A stretch of DNA of 63,143 bases from Clostridia bacterium (GTDB lineage: Bacteria > Bacillota > Peptococcia > DRI-13 > DTU073): contig JAQUGH010000002.1 of NCBI GenBank assembly GCA_028684195.1, positions 1 through 63,143 of the forward strand, read 5' to 3'. A program made the position numbers and the translations under genes. Of the stretch, positions 1 through 44,182 are shown in pieces. A model generated the notes under the pieces. It was not told the origin of the DNA, did not search any database, and saw only the letters and a list, made by a program, of their open reading frames with translations. How positions within the stretch are numbered: the first letter of the stretch is position 1; each line of letters begins with the position of its first letter.

Positions 1-253
1 GAGGCTGAGGAACACGGACCAATATGGCGCGCTACCCAGGGCGGCGCGCGCCTTCGGCGCCGCTTGCCCTGGGCTATCATATTTCGCGCTTTCAGCGCTT
101 CTGCCGCTTTGCGGCGGAAATACACGACGAGAAAAGGCTGCTTGGTTGAAACAACAAGTACCATGGATACCGTTAAATGAAGAGCATCGGTTTCATCGGA
201 GCCATCGCTATTCGTTATCCCAGCGGTCTTTTTGATCGCCGTGCTGCAAACCA
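1..253. other. GC-rich hairpin-dense segment of unclear origin (foreign DNA, structured RNA or assembly chimera)
   Basis: By eye >55% GC against a ~30% background. Nested inverted repeats: CCCAGGGC(35-42)/GCCCTGGG(66-73) enclosing GGCGC(43-47)/GCGCC(57-61); GCGC(86-89)/GCGC(95-98); CTGCCGC(101-107)/GCGGCGG(111-117). Several frames are open, as expected for GC-rich DNA, so coding cannot be judged. Confidence 0.35.
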
Positions 254-5392: not shown

Positions 5393-5547
5393 ATTGACTT
5401 ATATTTCCTTCTTTTATATAAAATAAATTTTTTTATTTTATATAAAATTTAGATATATTAATTCTTTATTTTGCATATATGTTTATAAAATTTATTTATT
5501 CAACATATATCTACATTATTTGATATTATAATGTAATAAAGTGAAAG

Positions 5548-6939
5548 TTAGTTGAATCTATATAAAGCTAGCGACGTCCAGCTATGCGGATAAATAAACA
5601 AGCCTTGGGAATAATATTCCAAGGCTTGTTTATTATTTTTAGTAAAAACATCTGCTTCAAGAAGCATATTTTCAATAAACACTCCATATCCTCTGGAAGG
5701 ATCATTAATAAATACATGTGTAACTGCTCCAGCTAATTTACCATTTTGTAAAATAGGACTACCACTCATTCCTTGAATAATTCCACCAGTTATTTCTAAT
5801 AATCTTTTATCAGTTATACGTACGATCATGTTTTTACCATCAATTCTATTAGAAAGAACCTTTTCAATCGAAATATCATATTTTTTTACTTCTTCTCCTT
5901 CAAGCACAGTTAAAATCTGAGCCTTTCCGCATTTAATTTGATTGGAATATAGAATGGGGATTGGTTCTTCGAAAAAAGTATTTTTTATATCTTTTTTTGA
6001 AGTACCATAGATACCACAGGTATCATTTTTTTCTATATTACCAAATTCGGTATTTTCAAGAAATAGTCCTACTTTTTCTCCGGGTTCTCCGGTTCTACCT
6101 TTTTTAACATCTTCTATAGATGCGTATAAAATTTTGCCTTGTCTTATATTTAACTTTTGATTTGTTTCAGTATCTGTGATCATATGACCTAAAGCTCCAT
6201 ATTTTTTTGATATGGGATCATAAAAGGTTAACGTTCCAATTCCCCCCGCATTATCTCGGACAAATAATCCAATACGATAAGATTTAGTATCATTACAATA
6301 TTGTGGCTGTACTACTCTTCTTAATTTTTTACCATTTCTGGTTACAGCTATTGTAAGACATATATTTGACTGACTGGATTTGCTAATAATATTTTTCACC
6401 TGATCATCATTAATAATGTTAATTCCATTAATATTAGTGATGATATCTCCCACCCTTATATCTGCGTCTCGTGCTGGGAAATGAGTCTCATTATTTTTAT
6501 CAAGTACAGGTGAAAAGCCGACAACTAGGACACCATCTGTTCTCAGTAACACACCGATAGAATGTCCTCCAGGTGTAAGCGTTATATCAGGTGTTACATC
6601 GATATTAATTATTTTTAGAGGTATTAATCCAAAAAGTTTTAATTCTAAGCTTACATTTCCTGGCTTAACACCAATGGGGGAAGTTACTCCTAATACATAT
6701 TTTCCTTGCGTTAATTCCTCTCCTTCCATTGTCAATATTTTTTCACTATCGTTTACATAAACATCAATTGCCTTTAATATGCTAGGCGGCAACCTTAAAA
6801 AAAGTTCTAATGGCTCTCCGACTGAAACACGTTGTTTATCATGCAAATTATAATAACTTTGAACTTGTGGTAACATAAAAGCGGCAAGAAAAGCAATTGT
6901 TATAAACACACCAAGAAGTAGGTTCTTTTTTCGCCACAT
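5548..6939 (-). CDS. spoIVB: SpoIVB signalling serine peptidase (S55)
   Basis: N-terminal anchor, PDZ-like region, GMSGSPI catalytic serine motif, and position next to spo0A. Confidence 0.9.
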   Translation of the reverse strand: MWRKKNLLLGVFITIAFLAAFMLPQVQSYYNLHDKQRVSVGEPLELFLRLPPSILKAIDVYVNDSEKILTMEGEELTQGKYVLGVTSPIGVKPGNVSLELKLFGLIPLKIINIDVTPDITLTPGGHSIGVLLRTDGVLVVGFSPVLDKNNETHFPARDADIRVGDIITNINGINIINDDQVKNIISKSSQSNICLTIAVTRNGKKLRRVVQPQYCNDTKSYRIGLFVRDNAGGIGTLTFYDPISKKYGALGHMITDTETNQKLNIRQGKILYASIEDVKKGRTGEPGEKVGLFLENTEFGNIEKNDTCGIYGTSKKDIKNTFFEEPIPILYSNQIKCGKAQILTVLEGEEVKKYDISIEKVLSNRIDGKNMIVRITDKRLLEITGGIIQGMSGSPILQNGKLAGAVTHVFINDPSRGYGVFIENMLLEADVFTKNNKQALEYYSQGLFIYPHSWTSLALYRFN

Positions 6940-7212: not shown

Positions 7213-7863
7213 TTAATTAATTTCTGTTCCACCCCATTCAACAACACTGAAACCTTTTCTTTCAAAAGAATCTAATTCCTGTTTTTCAATTTTCATGTAT
7301 TCATCTAAAGGCTTATATACCATAAATACTCTTAACATAGAATCGGGTTTAGGACTAATATCAAGAGGTGCTATTTCTTCATAATCTTGTCCTGCAAAGT
7401 AGATAAGATTATATTTATTATCTTGCATTAAAGGCAACCAATACACTATAAACTCATTGTATTCTTTTTCATTCAAGCCTATTTTTGCTAATGTTTCTTG
7501 TAAGAAATCTTTAGTTTTACTGCCCTCAATCACAAAACCTTTATCTATTGTCCATTTTTTATCACTTTGCCCTTCCCAAAATAAATATGAAAATTTTCTA
7601 TTATCATCTAGGTTATAGATTGAACCATCTGGCTGAGCAATAACGTTCCATCCATTTTTATATTCAGGATATGTACAAGTTAATTCACCTTGAAAATCTA
7701 ATTTCACATCTACCTGTTGTTCTTTCTCTGGATATAAATATATTACTGGCTTTTCTTTTGTTGTCAGTTGATTATCTAAATAATTTAATCCAAGTAAAAT
7801 TCCACCAGTCACAAGAAAACCGACAAATCCCAACAGTAATACTTTACTACACATTTTTTTCAT
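7213..7863 (-). CDS. Membrane-anchored or secreted hypothetical protein
   Basis: GGGAGG RBS 8 nt before the ATG at 7863. N-terminal MKKMCSKVLLLGFVGFLVTGGILLG anchor. No family recognised. Confidence 0.55.
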   Translation of the reverse strand: MKKMCSKVLLLGFVGFLVTGGILLGLNYLDNQLTTKEKPVIYLYPEKEQQVDVKLDFQGELTCTYPEYKNGWNVIAQPDGSIYNLDDNRKFSYLFWEGQSDKKWTIDKGFVIEGSKTKDFLQETLAKIGLNEKEYNEFIVYWLPLMQDNKYNLIYFAGQDYEEIAPLDISPKPDSMLRVFMVYKPLDEYMKIEKQELDSFERKGFSVVEWGGTEIN

Positions 7864-9576: not shown

Positions 9577-11256
9577 TTATTTCTTCTTTAATATGCTCAT
9601 AGCATGTTTTTTTAAATCTGATGAAGGATTTTCTCCCCCTAACATTCTTGCTATTTCATTCACTCTATCCTCTTTTTTTAATACAGACACTACTGTTTTA
9701 GTTCTTCCAGCTACAGTTTGTTTATCTAACAAAATATGATTATCTGCAAGTGCAGCAATAAATGGAGAATGTGTTACACATATAACCTGTTGACTTTCAC
9801 TTATTAGTTCAAGCTTTTCTGCCACCTTTTGAGCGGCTTTTCCCCCAATTCCTGAGTCAATTTCATCAAATATCAAAGTACCAATATCATCTATCTTAGC
9901 TAATATTGTTTTTAATGCCAACATTATTCTTGACAATTCACCGCCAGAAGCAATTTTAACTAAAGGTAATAATGGTTCTCCAGGATTAGGTGAAATTAAA
10001 AATTCGATTTGTTCAAGACCCTGATAGGTTGGTTCACAAGACGAAAAACTAACTAAAAATTGGGTGTGTGGCATAGCTAATTCTACTAATTCATTAACTA
10101 CCTTCATTTCTAAAATTTTAGCTAACTTTTTTCTAGCCTCTGATAAATATTGTGCTGACGTCATAAAGTCATTCAGTTGATTTTCTAAGGTTATTTCCAG
10201 TTCTTTCGTTTGTTCAGAGCTAGACATTAATTTTTCTAATTCGTCTTCTGACTGATGAGCATATTCTAATACATCTTCTATAGTTGAACCATATTTTTTA
10301 CATAAATTCTTAAGAAGCTGTAATCTTTTATCAGTTTGTTCTAATCTTTCAGGAGAATATTCAATATTATCAATATAATTTCTTATCTCAATGGCAATGT
10401 CTTCTAACAAATACAAGGAAGGTTCTAATTGATCAGCCATTTTTTCAAGAGATGAATCCATTTTTTTTATTTCATTAAGATTATCTAAGGCTTTACTTAA
10501 TAGTTCATAGGCTGAACTACCCCGATCTTCAGCAAAGAGCTGAAGATAAGCAAAATTCAAATGTTCACTTATCTTTCCTGCATTTGCAAGTAAATCAACT
10601 TCTTTTGTTAAGCTTTTAATTTCGCCTTGAGTTATATTGGCTTGTTTTATTTCTTCTAAATTATATTTAAGGAAATCCATTTTCTGTAATCGTGCTTTTT
10701 CACTTGTTTTTAATTCGTTCAATTTATTTTTAGTGTTAATATATTTATCATATTTTTCTTTTACAGTTTTCGTTAGCTTTAAATGAGATATACCACCAAA
10801 CTTATCTAAAAAATTAATATGTTTATTTGATTGAAGAAGATGCTGATGTTCGTGCTGACCATGAATATCAACGATATTTATACCTAATTGCCGATATTGT
10901 CCCAACGTTAAACTTCTTCCATTTACGCGGCAGATATTTCTACCATTTAATGAAAGTTCTCTATTCATAACTATAACATAATCCTCACAATCAACTCCAA
11001 TTTCCTCTAGAAAGCTCCATACGGTATGATTATTAGGAAGATAGAACGTTCCTTCTATAAATGCTTTCTTAGTTCCTGAACGGATGAATTCAGCTTGTGC
11101 TCTTCCTCCTAATAATACTGATAAAGCATCAATTATTATAGATTTTCCCGCACCTGTTTCACCTGTAAGTACATTGAAGTTTTCGGAAAAGTTAACACTT
11201 AAATCTTCAATTAGTGCAAAATTTTTAATAGAAATATTATCTAACATATTTAACAC
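9577..11256 (-). CDS. recN: DNA repair protein RecN
   Basis: 559 aa, Walker A GETGAGKS, long coiled coil, C-terminal SGGE signature and DEIDSGIGG. Confidence 0.95.
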   Translation of the reverse strand: MLNMLDNISIKNFALIEDLSVNFSENFNVLTGETGAGKSIIIDALSVLLGGRAQAEFIRSGTKKAFIEGTFYLPNNHTVWSFLEEIGVDCEDYVIVMNRELSLNGRNICRVNGRSLTLGQYRQLGINIVDIHGQHEHQHLLQSNKHINFLDKFGGISHLKLTKTVKEKYDKYINTKNKLNELKTSEKARLQKMDFLKYNLEEIKQANITQGEIKSLTKEVDLLANAGKISEHLNFAYLQLFAEDRGSSAYELLSKALDNLNEIKKMDSSLEKMADQLEPSLYLLEDIAIEIRNYIDNIEYSPERLEQTDKRLQLLKNLCKKYGSTIEDVLEYAHQSEDELEKLMSSSEQTKELEITLENQLNDFMTSAQYLSEARKKLAKILEMKVVNELVELAMPHTQFLVSFSSCEPTYQGLEQIEFLISPNPGEPLLPLVKIASGGELSRIMLALKTILAKIDDIGTLIFDEIDSGIGGKAAQKVAEKLELISESQQVICVTHSPFIAALADNHILLDKQTVAGRTKTVVSVLKKEDRVNEIARMLGGENPSSDLKKHAMSILKKK

Positions 11257-22330: not shown

Positions 22331-22906
22331 TTATTCGGTTCTAGGTATGATTATTACATCTTCTATTCTACAACCAGCTATTTTAACAACCATATCCGAA
22401 ATCCTAATAATTTCATCTTGACGAATTTCTTTTGAAGGCATAATGATCATTACTGATTGAGATTGCACAACTGCTATCGCTCTTTTATAGCCTTTTGCAA
22501 TTAAAGTATTTTCAATTTTGGATTCCTTTTCCATAACGTCCGTAATGTTCAATAATTTTTGTTGAGCCTCTATTTTAAATTGTGATGTAGAATTAGGATT
22601 ATTAACTAAATCGTTCAATATTTCCACTTGTTCACTTCTCATTTTATCCCTATCCAAACAATATTCAATAAAAAAATCATCTTTATTTATTTCTGCATTT
22701 TCCTCTTGAGTAACAATACTAACAAGTGGTTGAGAAACTTGCTGATTTTCTGTAATAGAGGGAATACTATTATTTGTTAAATCATCTTTGCAAAGTGTAA
22801 CTTCTCTAATATTTAATGACGTTATGACAAACCACATGAATGATATACTTAAAAACATCAAACCAAAAAGTAATATGTTTTTGAAACGAATAAATATAGT
22901 CATCAA
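22331..22906 (-). CDS. spoIIIAH: Stage III sporulation protein AH
   Basis: 191 aa, N-terminal TM, last gene of the spoIIIA series. Confidence 0.8.
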   Translation of the reverse strand: MMTIFIRFKNILLFGLMFLSISFMWFVITSLNIREVTLCKDDLTNNSIPSITENQQVSQPLVSIVTQEENAEINKDDFFIEYCLDRDKMRSEQVEILNDLVNNPNSTSQFKIEAQQKLLNITDVMEKESKIENTLIAKGYKRAIAVVQSQSVMIIMPSKEIRQDEIIRISDMVVKIAGCRIEDVIIIPRTE

Positions 22907-25839: not shown

Positions 25840-26037
25840 TTAATACAAAAAAAACACCCCTTTTACTTCAGAAAATAATTTACCCAAAAGCTGTATTACC
25901 ATTATTAAGGCTATCGCAACACCGGCCAAAGTAGCTATAAATGCGTACTCTTCTTTTCCTGCTTGTTTTAAAAGTGTATGAAAAATGGATGTAAGAATTC
26001 CTATTCCGGCAATTTGAAATATCAACTCAATATTCAT
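25840..26037 (-). CDS. spoIIIAC: Stage III sporulation protein AC
   Basis: 65 aa, two TM helices, typical SpoIIIAC sequence. Confidence 0.85.
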   Translation of the reverse strand: MNIELIFQIAGIGILTSIFHTLLKQAGKEEYAFIATLAGVAIALIMVIQLLGKLFSEVKGVFFLY

Positions 26038-26082
26038 AGCAATGCTCCTCTTTTGTTCATTAAATATTAACGTCTACCAACA

Positions 26083-26138
26083 TTTTAATAACTTGACCAT
26101 GTAATACATTATATTGTCCAATTTTCATTTTTATGCAT
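26083..26138 (-). promoter_or_regulatory. Duplicated promoter-like block upstream of spoIIIAC (copy B)
   Basis: About 80% identical over ~56 nt to 28975-29030, which lies upstream of spoIIIAA. On the gene strand it reads GCATAAA-N13-CAATATAAT, loosely sigma-E-like. Confidence 0.4.
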
Positions 26139-26172
26139 AAAAAAGAAGAGGGAGTTTTCCCTCTTCTTTTTT
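26139..26172. terminator. Terminator hairpin between the inserted cassette and spoIIIAC
   Basis: GAAGAGGG(26145-26152)/CCCTCTTC(26159-26166) with flanking A and T runs. Confidence 0.75.
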
Positions 26173-26267
26173 AAATAGCTTCGATTAATTCCTAAAAAAA
26201 TTTAAATAATTTTATAGTATTCCATATTAATTTATAAGCTAAAATATTAATAATATGACTATAAAAA

Positions 26268-26306
26268 CATCATGTTTTTCAGCAATAGCTGATAGCTTTT
26301 CACAAC
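26268..26306 (-). pseudogene. Remnant of a paralog of the 26422-27120 gene
   Basis: The gene-strand sequence GAAAAGCTATCAGCTATTGCTGAAAAACATGATG aligns with GAAAAGCTATCAAAGATTGCTGAAAAATATGGTG inside the intact gene (about 26650-26690). It would read CEKLSAIAEKHDVF.. and then stop. Confidence 0.55.
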
Positions 26307-26354
26307 CTTATGGGAATCGTATGAGTTATAAAATTATAAAAGCCTGACCCTCTC
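26307..26354. repeat. 48-bp direct repeat, copy 1
   Basis: CTTATGGGAATCGTATGAGTTATAAAATTATAAAAGCCTGACCCTCTC; 45 of 48 nt identical to 27165-27212. Confidence 0.9.
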
Positions 26355-26421
26355 AAACTCTCAAATTACAAAAGAAATAAGAAAAACGATAATCCTACTA
26401 TCCTCATCTGTTTGACACTAT

Positions 26422-27120
26422 CTAAAGTTGGTGATCACACTCACTTTTCTTATGTGCTTTCCCTTTGGGGTTACTCTGACTCTTAGGAGTAGGTGGTTTT
26501 TTTATAATAGCTCGTAGTCTATCACCTAGTGGAACTTTTGTTTTTCCCTCTATATCGCTATTAATACTCTTAAGCAAAGCTTCTTTAAAATCTTTAATAT
26601 CTTCATTACGCAAGCCGTTATTTTCATCTAGTCTTATTACAGCACCATATTTTTCAGCAATCTTTGATAGCTTTTCACTAGTTAAGGTACGATTATATGG
26701 AGAGTCTCCTTTTTCATGACTAACAAGTACGTCAATTTGATTATCATATTCTGACCATTTTTTATGTGTTATTTTTTTATCTTGAAAAGCTTTGTATATT
26801 TTGCTTTTTATGTCAGACCAATAATCTTTGCTTTCAATATGTTTGTTAATTAATTCAGGAACAATTGTATTAAAATCATTTTTAAATCGTAATAAATCAT
26901 TAGTCTTTTCCTTAAAAGCATAAGGGGATTTATTATTTCTTTTTGCAAATGAGTTCGCAAAAAATTGCAAATCATTTAATGCGAGACCTTTGATATCACT
27001 GTTATCCGATTCTTTTAGTAAAACAGCTACTCTTTCAGTATAAGAAAAGCCCTGAGTTTTTAAATCAGTTATTATTCTATCCCAAGGATTTACTTGTGTA
27101 CGAGAATCTTTACTTTCCAA
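26422..27120 (-). CDS. Orphan lysine-rich protein inserted inside the spoIIIA operon (gene X)
   Basis: ORF-track ORF 26422..27150. GGAGG lies 10 nt before the in-frame TTG at 27120, so the start is uncertain. No family recognised. Basic C-terminal tail KKPPTPKSQSNPKGKAHKK. Confidence 0.55.
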   Translation of the reverse strand: MESKDSRTQVNPWDRIITDLKTQGFSYTERVAVLLKESDNSDIKGLALNDLQFFANSFAKRNNKSPYAFKEKTNDLLRFKNDFNTIVPELINKHIESKDYWSDIKSKIYKAFQDKKITHKKWSEYDNQIDVLVSHEKGDSPYNRTLTSEKLSKIAEKYGAVIRLDENNGLRNEDIKDFKEALLKSINSDIEGKTKVPLGDRLRAIIKKPPTPKSQSNPKGKAHKKSECDHQL

Positions 27121-27164
27121 TATTGTAGAACCTCCCTCTGCTTTACACAAAAACTTTTATCAGT

Positions 27165-27212
27165 CTTATGAGTATCGTATGAGTTATAAAATTATAAAAG
27201 CCTGACCCCCTC
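27165..27212. repeat. 48-bp direct repeat, copy 2
   Basis: CTTATGAGTATCGTATGAGTTATAAAATTATAAAAGCCTGACCCCCTC, immediately upstream (gene sense) of gene X. Contains TATAAT on the gene strand. Confidence 0.9.
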
Positions 27213-27277
27213 GTTTACCTTTATTCATTTTCATAATATAGATTAATAATATTTAGTTAAATATATCATATTTTAGT

Positions 27278-27320
27278 TATAAAATGCAAGTGAAATTTTG
27301 CTCATTTCACTTGCATTTTA
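27278..27320 (-). terminator. Terminator after spoIIIAB
   Basis: 15-bp perfect stem AAATGCAAGTGAAAT(27282-27296)/ATTTCACTTGCATTT(27304-27318), followed on the minus strand by TTTTAT. Confidence 0.75.
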
Positions 27321-27343
27321 TCTGAATAGCTAACCACCGCTAA
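27318..27343 (-). repeat. 26-nt intergenic motif, copy 1
   Basis: Plus strand TTATCTGAATAGCTAACCACCGCTAA; gene strand TTAGCGGTGGTTAGCTATTCAGATAA. Lies 28 nt after the spoIIIAB stop. Confidence 0.8.
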
Positions 27344-27370
27344 CTTTGCACAGATTCAACAAATTTCACT

Positions 27371-27889
27371 TTATAGCAAGATGAGTACAATTACAGCACC
27401 CGTACATATGCCTAAGTACTGCCACATTTTTTGATTTTTCTTTTGTTCTTCTTCCACTGATTTTTCTACCATATACAATTGTTTTTTTGTTAATGCAATA
27501 TTTTTAAGCTGTTCCTCTTTATCAGAACATCCTAATCCGTGACCAAAAACATTTAATAATTCTTTTTCTTCCTTTGTTAAAGGTACTTTATTGGACAGTG
27601 TTATAATACCTTCATTCCATGCTTCACTGGCAGTTATTCCATTTTTCCTATGTAACATTGTAGCTGCTTTTGCAAATAAGGAACCGCAATCCTTGTTAAT
27701 CTTCATTCCTACTCTTTCCAATGCCAAAGGTAAAGGAGTAGAAGAATAGTTTATTTCAGTTTCAAGTAAAGAAAATCCGTTTTGCAAAAAACGAAATAAT
27801 TCAACCCTTTTACTATAGATATGGGCAATTTTAAAACCAATATAACCACAACCACCAATAATACAAAAAGCGCCAAACATTTTTAACAC
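27371..27889 (-). CDS. spoIIIAB: Stage III sporulation protein AB
   Basis: 172 aa, N- and C-terminal TM helices, follows spoIIIAA. Confidence 0.85.
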   Translation of the reverse strand: MLKMFGAFCIIGGCGYIGFKIAHIYSKRVELFRFLQNGFSLLETEINYSSTPLPLALERVGMKINKDCGSLFAKAATMLHRKNGITASEAWNEGIITLSNKVPLTKEEKELLNVFGHGLGCSDKEEQLKNIALTKKQLYMVEKSVEEEQKKNQKMWQYLGICTGAVIVLILL

Positions 27890-27893
27890 GAGA

Positions 27894-28961
27894 TCAGATC
27901 CCCTCTAATGTTTTCCCATCAATAACAGTTTCTAATGTTCCTACACCTTTTCTTCTACTCAATACAATAATTCTGTCAAAAAACCTCCAATTTATCAGCT
28001 CCTTGAGATTAGGTCTTCCCTTTATTTCCTCATAATTTCCACCATGTACAGTAGTAATAACAGTTACTCCTGCTTGTAAGGCATTATATATTGAATCAAT
28101 ATCTTCTTTCTTCCCTATTTCATCAGTAGCAATAACTCGTGGTGACATTGATCTTATTAACATCATCATGCCTTGAGATTTTGGACAAGCATCTAAGATA
28201 TCTGTTCTTAAACCAATTTGGAATTGTGGTTTACCTTGATAAACACCAGCTATTTCTGATCTTTCATCAACAAGCCCTACATTTACTCCTTGAAACCCAA
28301 TTTTACTAATTCCATCACTAATTTGCCTAACAATATCTCTAAGAAGAGTGGTTTTTCCACATTGAGGCGGTGAAATAATCAAAGTGTGATAAATTTGGTC
28401 ATTATTAATAATATGCGGTATGATTTTATCGGCACATCCTAGTACCTGTCTACCTATTCTATAATTTATACCTGAGATATCTTTTATTGTTTTGATATTT
28501 CCTTTATCTAAAACACATTTTCCAACAAACCCAACTCGATGACCACCAGGTATTGTTATATATCCATTTTTAAATTCATCCTCCCAAGCGTATAGTGAAT
28601 TTTGACTCAGTAACTGTACCGTTCTGTCAATTTCCTCCTTGTTAATCAAATATCCCTTTTCAAGATTAAAAGTTAATTGTTTTTGAGATGTTACAGTCAT
28701 TTCTTTTAAACCTGTCCGAAAAATAATAGGTTGATTAATTCTTAATCGAATTTCTTCAAATTCTCCAATAAAAGATTGTAAACAGTCAATAACTAATTCT
28801 TGAATATTAGGAGATAGTGCCTGAAACCAACTTAGTGAATATATTTTAAGAGGTGACACAGATATAATACTTTTCTTAATTTCAGTAGGATGTGTAGTAA
28901 CATTTTCCTTGTTTATACTTTCTTTAATATCAGCATCTTTGTTAATAAATACTTTTGCCAT
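27894..28961 (-). CDS. spoIIIAA: Stage III sporulation protein AA (secretion-type ATPase)
   Basis: 355 aa, Walker A PPQCGKTTLLRD, Walker B IATDEIG. Confidence 0.9.
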   Translation of the reverse strand: MAKVFINKDADIKESINKENVTTHPTEIKKSIISVSPLKIYSLSWFQALSPNIQELVIDCLQSFIGEFEEIRLRINQPIIFRTGLKEMTVTSQKQLTFNLEKGYLINKEEIDRTVQLLSQNSLYAWEDEFKNGYITIPGGHRVGFVGKCVLDKGNIKTIKDISGINYRIGRQVLGCADKIIPHIINNDQIYHTLIISPPQCGKTTLLRDIVRQISDGISKIGFQGVNVGLVDERSEIAGVYQGKPQFQIGLRTDILDACPKSQGMMMLIRSMSPRVIATDEIGKKEDIDSIYNALQAGVTVITTVHGGNYEEIKGRPNLKELINWRFFDRIIVLSRRKGVGTLETVIDGKTLEGI

Positions 28962-28974
28962 TAGAATCGCTCCT

Positions 28975-29030
28975 TTTTAACAACTTGACCAAGTATTATA
29001 ATATATTGTCCCATTGCTATTTTTATGCAA
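28975..29030 (-). promoter_or_regulatory. Promoter-like block upstream of spoIIIAA (copy A)
   Basis: Gene strand GCATAAA-N13-CAATATATT followed by GGTCAAGTTGTTAAAAAGGAG and the ATG. Duplicated at 26083-26138. Confidence 0.4.
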
Positions 29031-29032
29031 AT

Positions 29033-29068
29033 AAAAAAACAAGGGGAATTATATTTCTCCTTGTTTTT
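29033..29068. terminator. Terminator hairpin after gene Y
   Basis: ACAAGGGGA(29039-29047)/TCTCCTTGT(29056-29064) with an A-run and a T-run. Confidence 0.7.
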
Positions 29069-29094
29069 GAAAATTAATATTGTATTATCGTAAG

Positions 29095-29868
29095 TTATTT
29101 TTCATTTTTTATATGATGTATTTTTGGCTGTTTAGCTTTATGTCTTCCTCCTCGACCAAAAATTCTTGATGTAAATACACCTCCGTTATTTTTAAATTCG
29201 TTTTGAATATGATTTATCACCATTTGTACAAACCTAGTTAAATTTTGCGGATTACTCTTTATATCAAGATTTCCATATTTTTGAGCATACATTCTTAATC
29301 TTTCAGTTTCTTTTGGATTAAGATTATTCATATCACCTTTGTCACCGTTGCATTTTTCCAGTAATTTTATTATTCGCCTTTGCTCTGTATATTGTGTTAC
29401 ACTTATTGACCTATTTTTCATACTGTCATACAAAGTATTAGTGCTAGTGCTAATAACAGATAATAATTTATTATTATTTAATTTACATCTTACTCTACGC
29501 CAATCAATTTTATTTCTAGTATTCGCTAGAATAATATTAACCTTTTCTTTAAGTTCTTTTTTATAGTACTTAAGACGTGCATTATCATAAGTTGTTACTT
29601 TAATACCATATTCTTTTTTACACTTAATATATTCATCAATCATGGCACGATTTTTTCTTATAATCCATTTGCATTTTTCTGTTTTGAATTCATTTACAGA
29701 TATCCCACGTTCATTACAAAACTCTTTTATATCAGCTTCGGTTGAAAAATCATTAAAATTAATCATATATGGATTTCTTAACTCATAATATTTTGCTAGT
29801 TTTTCATATTTCTTTTCTAATGATATTTTAAACTGTAATCGATCCCCAAAGTATACAGGGTTTTGCAT
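29095..29868 (-). CDS. Orphan lysine-rich protein upstream of spoIIIAA (gene Y)
   Basis: 257-aa ORF with terminators on both sides. No family recognised. Basic tail GRGGRHKAKQPKIHHIKNEK. Confidence 0.55.
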   Translation of the reverse strand: MQNPVYFGDRLQFKISLEKKYEKLAKYYELRNPYMINFNDFSTEADIKEFCNERGISVNEFKTEKCKWIIRKNRAMIDEYIKCKKEYGIKVTTYDNARLKYYKKELKEKVNIILANTRNKIDWRRVRCKLNNNKLLSVISTSTNTLYDSMKNRSISVTQYTEQRRIIKLLEKCNGDKGDMNNLNPKETERLRMYAQKYGNLDIKSNPQNLTRFVQMVINHIQNEFKNNGGVFTSRIFGRGGRHKAKQPKIHHIKNEK

Positions 29869-29961
29869 TTAAAATCATACTTCCTTCCATTTATTATATT
29901 AGAATGTATTTTATCACTTATAGATCAATATTTCTATATATTTATAACAATAACTTTTGAA

Positions 29962-30000
29962 AATAAAACCCCCAATATGTAAACATATTGGGGGTTTTAT
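29962..30000 (-). terminator. Terminator after the CD1247-like gene
   Basis: AACCCCCAATATG(29967-29979)/CATATTGGGGGTT(29984-29996), followed by a T-run. Confidence 0.85.
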
Positions 30001-30004
30001 TTTC

Positions 30005-37290: not shown

Positions 37291-37327
37291 AATTAAACGC
37301 ACTCCTTAATTTCAAACATAAATGTTT

Positions 37328-37353
37328 TTATCTGAATAGCTAACCGTCGCTTA
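37328..37353 (-). repeat. 26-nt intergenic motif, copy 2
   Basis: Plus strand TTATCTGAATAGCTAACCGTCGCTTA; gene strand TAAGCGACGGTTAGCTATTCAGATAA. Its first three nt are the stop codon of the 37351-38442 gene. Confidence 0.8.
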
Positions 37354-38442
37354 TTTATAACTTATTAAACTAACTGATATTGTACCTAGCTCACTTGGAA
37401 GGATAGGAATATTATAACTATCATCAATAATAATTTTACTATGATTATCCATACTTAAATATTTGCAGATCACATTTCCATTAATCGTGGAATTATTAGA
37501 TATTTCTATGTTCTGACGTGCAATTACAACACCTGTTAAATTTAATGTATTATCAAATTTAATTTTCCCATTGCTATAAAGTAATATATTATTAGCATCA
37601 ATGTTATTATTAAAAGTTATATTATTTCCAACCATAACAATATTCTTTAGTTCTGTTTTATTTGCTACATTTATGTCATTATCAGTTACAAAAACGATTC
37701 CTTCAACTTCAATATTACCAGCAATGAGTATATTCCCTTTAACTTCTATAATAACATTATCTAAAATAAGATTCGTTTTACTCGTAAAATTCAAATCACC
37801 ATTCACATAATAATATTTTTCACCAGTTTTAAAATCATTTTCAGAAGCGTTCCCATATATGATTTTATCAGGGAGTTCTCTTCCTGTATTATTATACCAA
37901 TCCGAATCAAATTCAGGGAATTCAAGGACTTCGTCAGTAAAATGCACCCCATTTAATTTAGCGTGATTATTAATCGTATATTTATGGTTGATTAGATAAT
38001 CTCCTTCAACCATAGAGTTATTATCAAATACGCTTTCTAGATCACTACCACACCCATAAGCAGTTAAGGCATGTGAAGTAAACCCCTTGCTATTTTTCAC
38101 TTCCGCTATAGCCTGTAAAGTATATTTACTATCATTTACGAAACCAATGGATGTCAATTTTATATTATGATTTTCACTTGATGTAACATTAACTTGGTTT
38201 GTTCCAATTTCCATGGTCATAGTGGGAACTATACCTTTAAATTCTGGATGTTGCTTTATATATACTAAAGCTTCTTCAATACCAGCCTCTGCAACATAAA
38301 ATGACTGAAGCTTATGCAACTGTTTACTGGAAATATTCGAATTAAGTGTGGTTATTTGCATAAAAGCCATACTAACCGTTAGTAATACCAACATAGCTAA
38401 CATAGCATATAAATATGCACTGCCATTTTTATTTCTTAGCAA
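37351..38442 (-). CDS. PilX-N-like pilus-associated protein with repetitive beta-rich C-terminal region
   Basis: N-terminal GSAYLYAMLAMLVLLTVS helix and the AEAGIEEAL motif typical of the PilX N-terminal domain. TTG start after GGAGGTG. Confidence 0.55.
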   Translation of the reverse strand: MLRNKNGSAYLYAMLAMLVLLTVSMAFMQITTLNSNISSKQLHKLQSFYVAEAGIEEALVYIKQHPEFKGIVPTMTMEIGTNQVNVTSSENHNIKLTSIGFVNDSKYTLQAIAEVKNSKGFTSHALTAYGCGSDLESVFDNNSMVEGDYLINHKYTINNHAKLNGVHFTDEVLEFPEFDSDWYNNTGRELPDKIIYGNASENDFKTGEKYYYVNGDLNFTSKTNLILDNVIIEVKGNILIAGNIEVEGIVFVTDNDINVANKTELKNIVMVGNNITFNNNIDANNILLYSNGKIKFDNTLNLTGVVIARQNIEISNNSTINGNVICKYLSMDNHSKIIIDDSYNIPILPSELGTISVSLISYK

Positions 38443-44017: not shown

Positions 44018-44046
44018 ACTATTTACCCCCTAATCATAATATATAT

Positions 44047-44072
44047 TCATCTAAATAGCTTACCGTCGCTAA
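44047..44072 (-). repeat. 26-nt intergenic motif, copy 3
   Basis: Plus strand TCATCTAAATAGCTTACCGTCGCTAA; gene strand TTAGCGACGGTAAGCTATTTAGATGA. Lies about 30 nt upstream of the aroK start. Confidence 0.8.
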
Positions 44073-44182
44073 GCTCAGTGTTACATTCAGTAGAGACTAA
44101 CGAACAATTTTGTGAGCATTACTATTGTATCAATGAACCAATTAAACTTAAGTAGGCGATAAAAGATCTCCACTGAAATAAG

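Follow-up and report, generated by a model that had tools for sequence, protein, structure and literature searches.

The spoIIIA operon is a signature of endospore-formers, and it is taken as contiguous when sporulation capacity is predicted from genomes. How, then, should we read a spoIIIA locus in which two neighbouring genes are separated by 1333 bp of other DNA, and can such a locus still function? We address this question for a stretch of 63,143 nucleotides from a Clostridia bacterium (contig JAQUGH010000002.1, assembly GCA_028684195.1), which we call the window and whose positions are used throughout. The gap lies between spoIIIAB and spoIIIAC. We consider it probable that a lineage-specific mosaic insertion of about 1.3 kb split the eight-gene operon into two transcription units with the same type of promoter. 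An earlier reading of this sequence, here called the original prediction, had described the gap as an insulated and possibly mobile cassette bounded by direct repeats.

An interrupted spoIIIA locus

The locus lies on the minus strand, as do all window features below unless marked otherwise. It comprises spoIIIAA (27894-28961), spoIIIAB (27371-27889), a spacer (26038-27370, 1333 bp) and the genes from spoIIIAC (25840-26037) to spoIIIAH (22331-22906). The eight genes are in the conserved order. Pfam identified spoIIIAA, spoIIIAB (Spore_III_AB, E 1.4e-50) and spoIIIAC (SpoIIIAC, E 1.7e-17), and it identified spoIIIAD, spoIIIAE, spoIIIAF and spoIIIAH on an identical contig; spoIIIAG was recognized by tblastn to relatives. 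All eight open reading frames (ORFs) are full length and 45-86% identical to those of relatives. What fails here is their contiguity as one unit with short spacers. The spacer holds two predicted hairpin terminators and an unrelated ORF, so that spoIIIAB would be the last gene of an upstream unit (spoIIIAA-AB) and spoIIIAC the first gene of a downstream unit (AC-AH) that reaches 22331 and whose genes match those of relatives. The separation of 1333 bp given in the original prediction is confirmed by coordinates and Pfam.

We compared the locus with 39 spoIIIA loci from other organisms; the nearest available ones, from metagenome-assembled genomes of Peptococcia and Peptococcaceae, share 61-77% identity in SpoIIIAA. 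In 30 of the loci both spoIIIAB and spoIIIAC could be placed, and the two genes are 15-104 bp apart except in one outlier (267 bp). Between the spoIIIAA end and the spoIIIAC start there are 545-727 bp in 38 of the 39 loci and 1132 bp in the outlier, compared with 1860 bp in the window. The insert is missing from every other spoIIIA locus examined, nearest relatives included, and it is lineage-specific. The suspicion that such a split is unusual for spore-formers was therefore correct: the same junction in relatives has a short spacer without the insert, and an ancestral arrangement carrying the ORF was not seen. The outlier (our locus L034, 7513-7782) comes from a distant Clostridia genome, UC5.1-1D2, and is the only other enlarged gap among the 30; its spacer is GC-rich and apparently non-coding.

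The insert did not arise as an error of assembly, for it recurs in independent assemblies of the same species. A contig from ENA (L037) carries an identical insert of 1333 bp, and the differences in the aligned stretch are three single-nucleotide polymorphisms, at the spoIIIAA-AB junction and inside spoIIIAB. Contigs in Logan from landfill metagenome runs also cover the insert. When the landfill runs were searched for an empty-site allele or for read-through joints, nothing but spurious joints of 20-24 nt came up.

Read on the gene strand, the insert consists of an element of about 50 nt, a hairpin terminator (T1), a 59-nt repeat (A), an ORF of 232 codons (ORF232), a second repeat (B) joined to a remnant of ORF232, a second hairpin terminator (T2) and a promoter copy (P'). 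The motif, hairpins, repeat, ORF and remnant that the original prediction had listed are all present where it had placed them.

A copy of the spoIIIAA terminator and promoter

The last ~95 nt of the insert is a copy of the terminator-plus-promoter module that stands upstream of spoIIIAA, a feature that the original prediction had missed. The source module (28975-29071) has a hairpin with an RNA folding energy of -12.2 kcal/mol (z -4.1), and its promoter, P, is conserved in L001, L003-L007 and L055. Positions 26083-26152 are 80% identical to 28975-29044 over 70 nt (blastn E 2.7e-4 within the window). The promoter copy P' (26083-26137; TGCATAAAAAT-N6-TGGACAATATAAT...GGTCAAGTT) lies 45 nt upstream of the spoIIIAC start codon. 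Adjoining it is the predicted terminator T2 (26138-26173), which has 16-nt perfect arms and an RNA folding energy of -22.1 kcal/mol (z -6.5) and whose T-run passes directly into the -35-like TGCATA of P'. T2 is homologous to the terminator before the spoIIIAA promoter, here and in relatives. Thus, the duplicated module consists of terminator and promoter together, about 95 nt in all.

P' is a paralogue of the spoIIIAA promoter. In the spoIIIAA upstream region of seven relatives, the terminator T-run leads into TGCATAAAAAT, followed six bases on by T(T/G)GGACAATATATTAT, which in several of them makes a perfect palindrome, TTGGACAATAT/ATATTGTCCAA. P' retains the spacing, and it has no change at the positions that do not vary among the relatives' promoters (TGCATA, GGACAATATA, CAAGTT). 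Within the 63-kb window, the pattern GCATAAAAAT-N7-GGACAATATA is found at 26110-26136 and 29002-29028 only, with 0.04 matches expected by chance. P' is closest to the spoIIIAA promoter of its own genome (77% vs 48-71% to relatives), and the two window promoters have the derived GGTCAAGTT in common where relatives carry GTCCAAGTT or GTTCAAGTT.

The spoIIIA operons of Bacillus subtilis and Clostridioides difficile are transcribed by sigma-E RNA polymerase, repressed by SpoIIID, and have two sigma-E promoters, before spoIIIAA and before spoIIIAG (PMC3789822, PMC4605598). The TGCATA of the window promoters fits the 'ATA' -35 motif of sigma-E promoters. By analogy, we believe that the promoter with TGCATA and GGACAATATA is probably sigma-E dependent and SpoIIID-modulated. 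The GGACAA core of the spoIIIAA promoter presumably resembles a SpoIIID box.

Three further observations concern these promoters. In L003, L005 and L006, the perfect palindrome TTGGACAATAT-N3-ATATTGTCCAA overlaps the -10 region of the spoIIIAA promoter. It resembles a dimeric regulator site, possibly SpoIIID-like (GGACAA), and its second half-site is degenerate in both window copies. A sigma-70 and terminator scanner found promoter-like sites in the number expected from shuffled sequence; it missed T1 and T2 because their stems absorb the T-run. Lastly, we considered whether the 45 nt between P' and spoIIIAC might be a remnant of the spoIIIAA 5' end, left by tandem duplication of [P-AA-AB] and deletion. 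The alignment score was matched by 51 of 300 shuffles, and we rejected this idea.

The spoIIIAB end of the insert

At the other end of the insert lies T1 (27279-27321), a hairpin with 18-nt perfect arms, an RNA folding energy of -22.5 kcal/mol (z -6.9) and a 3' arm that ends in UUUUAU. We infer that T1 closes the spoIIIAA-AB transcript. The whole stretch from the spoIIIAB stop codon to T1 is taken up by a dispersed intergenic element of about 50 nt (27317-27370; GTTAGTTGAAyC...AGCTTAGCGACGGTTAGCTATTCrGATAAA). It contains the 26-nt motif of the original prediction, which has a near-identical copy at 37326-37351. The family of the longer element has three more window copies (37327-37375, 44046-44095 and, on the plus strand, 5545-5594) and copies in metagenome loci: L043 (3707-3780), L046 (11064-11113), L047 (5164-5213) and L048 (231-280 and 986-1035). 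In L043, the 150 nt around the element have a k-mer depth of 60-140, compared with 7 for single-copy sequence, and hold an inverted partner, AGCGATGCTAAGCT.

ORF232 and its remnant

ORF232 (26422-27120) encodes 232 amino acids from a TTG codon at 27120 that follows GGAGG; an alternative start at 27150 would give 242. The product has many lysines, an all-alpha predicted fold and a basic, proline-containing C-terminal tail. That such an ORF exists by chance is very unlikely. It scores 0.28 bits/codon in frame, compared with 0.34 +/- 0.07 for window genes and at most -0.77 off-frame, and we estimate the chance probability of 232-242 stop-free codons at 31% GC to be ~1e-9 to 1e-8. ORF232 is identical in every sampled population.

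Searches for homologues returned ORF232 itself only from 5.8 billion clustered proteins and no accepted homologue from 1.8 billion representatives. The sole non-self match in the latter library, P0002, is a repetitive protein of 1680 amino acids in which a 44-residue stretch matched many times, and we regard it as spurious. In Pfam, PHROGs, NCBIfam, PADLOC and PDB, no hit reached a curated cut-off or was significant by its E-value, and neither ORF232 nor the cassette matched the plasmid and phage collections. The view that the ORF is an orphan rather than a member of a common annotated family is thus upheld. A single-sequence AlphaFold2 model is all-helical, with a pLDDT of 49, and is unreliable. 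No copy of a spoIIIA-type promoter precedes ORF232.

Downstream of the ORF, a remnant (26260-26303) is 82% identical over 44 nt to 26635-26678 within ORF232 and encodes EKLSAIAEKHDVFIV where the ORF encodes EKLSKIAEKYGAVIR. It is joined to repeat B through the microhomology (G/C)TGA(A/T)AAAG. As the two repeats also share an extra ~30 nt that is described below, we propose a local tandem duplication of [27-mer + leader + ORF232] followed by a deletion. The fusion of repeat and remnant bears out the suggestion in the original prediction that the cassette has undergone duplication and decay.

A dispersed 27-nt repeat

Repeat A (27154-27212) contains a 27-nt core, GGGGTCAGGCTTTTATAATTTTATAAC, at 27183-27209 and an extension of ~30 nt, and lies 33 nt upstream of the ORF232 start. 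Repeat B (26296-26354) has the core at 26325-26351, with one mismatch, and the shared extension. The two match at 88% over 59 nt, and their best stretch, 44 nt long (27165-27208 vs 26307-26350), matches at 95% (E 2e-14 within the window). The core contains TATAAT. The extension is common to repeats A and B only and is in no other locus that has the 27-mer.

We used a 24-nt part of the core to scan metagenome contigs from JGI. Exact copies of all 27 nt stand at 16 sites in 14 unrelated loci, and diverged copies are present at further sites. The conserved unit is GGGGTCAGGCTTTTATAATTTTATAAC, 27 nt, with unrelated flanks on both sides. Copies are intergenic, and their neighbours include a riboflavin operon, tryptophan synthase, ABC transporters and ToxN genes. 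The 27-mer was not found in viral contigs. Thus, the repeat is not private to the cassette.

The landfill runs point to a high copy number. The summed k-mer depth of the 30-mer at 27180-27209 is ~400 in run X1 (flanks 6-8) and ~94 in run X2 (flanks 4-5), and Logan unitigs break at the repeat. The flanks of the 27-mer in these runs are those of L043 and L046, and the single-copy depth of L043 in three runs (7, 4-5 and 2-3) equals that of the window contigs. L043 and L046 may therefore plausibly come from the same genome as the window. If so, that genome would plausibly have tens of 27-mer copies.

By its distribution and its association with a transposase, the 27-mer is REP-like; it fails the palindrome criterion. 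Its minimum free energy is 0 and -0.2 kcal/mol on the two strands, no better than shuffles, and its ends have neither a GTAG nor a CGTC tag. Inverted 27-mers flank a Y1_Tnp gene twice in L042, at 7378-7404(+)/8317-8343(-) and 11168-11194(+)/12107-12133(-), and once in L050, at 52-78(+)/1184-1210(-). The flanked protein has 290-317 amino acids, with Y1_Tnp (IS200-like, Pfam E 7.5e-17) and a DnaA-C-type helix-turn-helix (HTH) domain. Its best NCBIfam match is REP_Tyr_transpos ('REP-associated tyrosine transposase'), which it hits with 69-73 bits where the cut-off is 80. The two RAYT-like copies in L042 (7378-8343 and 11168-12133, with 27-mers GGGGTCAGGCTTTTATAATTT(T/G)...) lie 3.8 kb apart and show 100% identity, in the manner of an IS. 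The protein in L050 (52-1210) is 50% identical to that of L042, and the flanking 27-mers are one mismatch from the core.

Loci with several solo 27-mers (the rib operon of L041, L044 and the ABC transporter locus of L051) have them in direct orientation, like the window. Because solo copies are so oriented elsewhere, the direct repeats around ORF232 do not speak for mobility of the cassette. The view of the original prediction that its 48-bp repeats are the ends of a mobile cassette is therefore not supported: their core is dispersed, its direct orientation is common elsewhere, and ORF232 is found nowhere else. The related description of an insulated unit bounded by direct repeats stands in one part. 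Two strong hairpins do bracket ORF232, but the repeats form no boundary, for the insertion junctions lie ~160 and ~260 nt outside them.

A few other features were seen around the 27-mers. Short tandem duplications of the flank and first core bases lie just upstream of the GGGGTCA end in L041 (4994-5040), L047 (7325-7349), L048 (1162-1190) and L049 (169-200); examples are GACGGGGTCAaGACGGGGTCAGG, CGTTAAATCGTTAAATCGGGG and GTGCAAACAAGG x3, and such duplications might have been left behind by the way in which the element inserts. Genes of the ToxN family (type III toxin-antitoxin) lie 0.3-1.5 kb from 27-mers in L044 (2247-2783) and L048 (402-845). In L040, long tandem arrays of CGTTAAAC-type units are found on both sides of the 27-mer.

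The neighbourhood of the operon

The ORFs within ~5 kb on each side of the insert are spoIIIA, efp, Asp23-type and similar genes, and the sporulation-context genes adjoining the spoIIIA locus are intact. No transposase or integrase was found in the window, as the original prediction had noted.

A second orphan lysine-rich gene, ORF257 (29095-29868), lies between a CD1247-like gene and spoIIIAA and was likewise missed by the original prediction. A search of 5.8 billion proteins returned ORF257 itself only. Most relatives have hydF at this position, a GTPase of ~405 amino acids for [FeFe]-hydrogenase maturation (Pfam HydF domains are recorded in L055), and hydF was not found in the 63-kb window. 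We asked whether ORF232 and ORF257 are paralogues, in which case an [ORF-terminator-promoter] unit would have been duplicated in its entirety. The pairwise BLASTP E-value was 0.009, or ~1 against all window ORFs, and was not significant.

Between the CD1247-like gene and ORF257 is a perfect hairpin with 22-nt arms (29959-30004; RNA folding energy -31 kcal/mol, z -8). With A- and T-runs on both sides, it looks like a bidirectional terminator. Rfam returned sub-threshold hairpin matches only; those to this hairpin (ohsC, His leader) are probably hairpin artefacts.

A model for the split operon

We propose a model in which the operon was divided without loss of its co-regulation. The first unit would be the spoIIIAA-AB transcript, which would start at the conserved promoter P and end at T1. 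ORF232 would lie insulated between T1 and T2, preceded by the 27-nt element and followed by the decayed partial tandem duplicate of [27-mer + leader + ORF232]. After T2, P' would restart transcription of spoIIIAC-AH. Thus, all eight genes may remain co-regulated in the mother cell despite the insert.

We further propose a history in two steps. The ~95-nt module would have been copied into the AB-AC spacer as a neutral change, making a true intergenic 'safe harbour'. In the new intergenic region, ORF232 would then have gathered along with short dispersed repeats, in which this genome is rich. We favour this order as the most economical, because an insertion that came first would be polar on six essential sporulation genes.

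Several points weigh against this model. The copied module covers a short stretch, 70-95 nt at 77-80% identity. A search for RNA runs returned none, and that P' is active and that T1 and T2 end transcription are predictions from sequence. The -10 region, CAATATA, is not the textbook sigma-E CATACA-T, so the assignment to sigma-E rests on operon orthology. The closest SpoIIIAB from outside the species is ~71% identical, in the collection of 5.8 billion proteins, and no intermediate state was found. Finally, ORF232 could have a sporulation role.

This last point leads to the first of the other explanations, namely that ORF232 is a recruited lineage-specific sporulation protein (e.g. a mother-cell protein or one that is accessory to the SpoIIIA-SpoIIQ channel), kept by selection in a position that is functional. 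Such a role would fit an intact gene with a ribosome-binding site and native-like codon usage, identical across sampled populations and located inside a sporulation operon that has another orphan, ORF257, just upstream. However, the two strong predicted terminators would insulate ORF232 from transcription of the operon, the gene has no spoIIIA-type promoter of its own and no homologue in any other spore-former, and a partial duplicate of it was left to decay; the structure prediction is uninformative. We therefore regard a recruited sporulation protein as unlikely. A different explanation is that the operon is decaying in a lineage that is losing sporulation, with P' a non-functional relic. 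Terminator-bearing insertions are polar, and hydF is also gone from the neighbourhood. Yet the eight spoIIIA ORFs are full length with 45-86% identity to relatives, P' keeps the invariant promoter positions and spacing, and the adjoining sporulation-context genes are intact; decay thus seems highly improbable to us.

The cassette might instead be a small non-autonomous mobile element, akin to IS200/IS605 derivatives and moved in trans by the RAYT-like Y1 (HUH) transposase. Y1 transposases work on ends lying on the same strand, and ORF232 is flanked by two direct copies of a 27-mer that is multi-copy, exactly conserved and, in inverted pairs, found around the Y1_Tnp + HTH protein of L042 (two copies) and L050. 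But ORF232 and the cassette DNA are single-copy everywhere we searched, no empty-site allele was found in the landfill runs, and the junctions lie outside the repeats. Moreover, solo 27-mers are direct-oriented around housekeeping operons too (the L041 rib operon and the L051 ABC transporter), the 27-mer forms no hairpin, the window is without a transposase, and the extra ~30 nt and the remnant fit a local tandem duplication. We strongly doubt that the cassette moved in this way. There are also two bolder possibilities. The 27-mer and the RAYT-like Y1 + HTH protein may form a REP-like system that has not been described before and that seeds the boundaries of operons in Peptococcia-type Firmicutes, with ORF232 captured as a Y1-mobilisable unit; or ORF232 may be a new partner of SpoIIIA-SpoIIQ that was tolerated via the promoter duplication. 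We consider this pair of ideas quite unlikely. A split operon with a duplicated module is the reading that we prefer.

If it is correct, the locus would be a natural example of an operon that was split without losing co-regulation, its own module having been copied before the downstream genes. The intact genes and the promoter copy suggest that an interrupted spoIIIA can still function. Automatic annotation, and ortholog calls that rely on synteny, would score a locus of this kind wrongly. An insulated slot with a relative-less gene is also a candidate for studying the origin of new genes. In addition, the analysis brings to light two short dispersed-repeat families in an uncultured landfill Firmicute, one of them tied to a RAYT-like transposase.

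Comparison with known systems

Several elements of this locus are already known from other systems, namely internal promoters in operons, the splitting of an operon by an inserted ORFan, and repeats of the REP/RAYT type. In REP/RAYT (REPIN) systems, as here, the repeat is short, extragenic and multi-copy, and a Y1 transposase-like gene lies between inverted copies (PMC2817692, PMC3116915, PMC5581495); the 27-mer shares these properties and is exact. In contrast to those repeats, the 27-mer is non-palindromic (folding energy 0), lacks a GTAG/CGTC tag and is mostly solitary rather than in inverted doublets. The transposase-like protein also differs: it falls under the family cut-off, has a DnaA-C-type HTH domain, is present as two identical copies in L042 and is known from loci other than the window.

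The cassette is also unlike those of two other kinds. Compared with an IS200/IS605-type (PATE-like) cassette, the ORF232 unit is single-copy and has no hairpins at its repeats, and its junctions lie well outside them. Unlike in an integron gene cassette, the repeat does not fold as attC, and there is no integrase-like gene within ~5 kb on either side.

A conserved operon that is broken by a lineage-specific ORFan, and whose downstream part gains its own promoter, is part of the 'life-cycle of operons'. The window differs from this scheme in that the new promoter duplicates the one that the operon already had, along with the terminator before it. We found no description of such a duplicated terminator-promoter module for spoIIIA in the papers that we consulted.

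The closest comparison is with the model spoIIIA operons of B. subtilis and C. difficile. These have the same eight genes in the same order, are under sigma-E control in the mother cell and repressed by SpoIIID, and have more than one promoter of the same class (PMC3789822, PMC4605598). In the models, however, the internal promoter stands before spoIIIAG, and the operon is contiguous and has no insertion. In the window, the break is at AB/AC, with a foreign orphan gene and two predicted terminators, and the promoter before spoIIIAC can be recognised as a paralogue of the one before spoIIIAA. What is unusual, then, is a break in the highly conserved spoIIIA operon that comes with a recognisable duplication of its terminator-promoter module.

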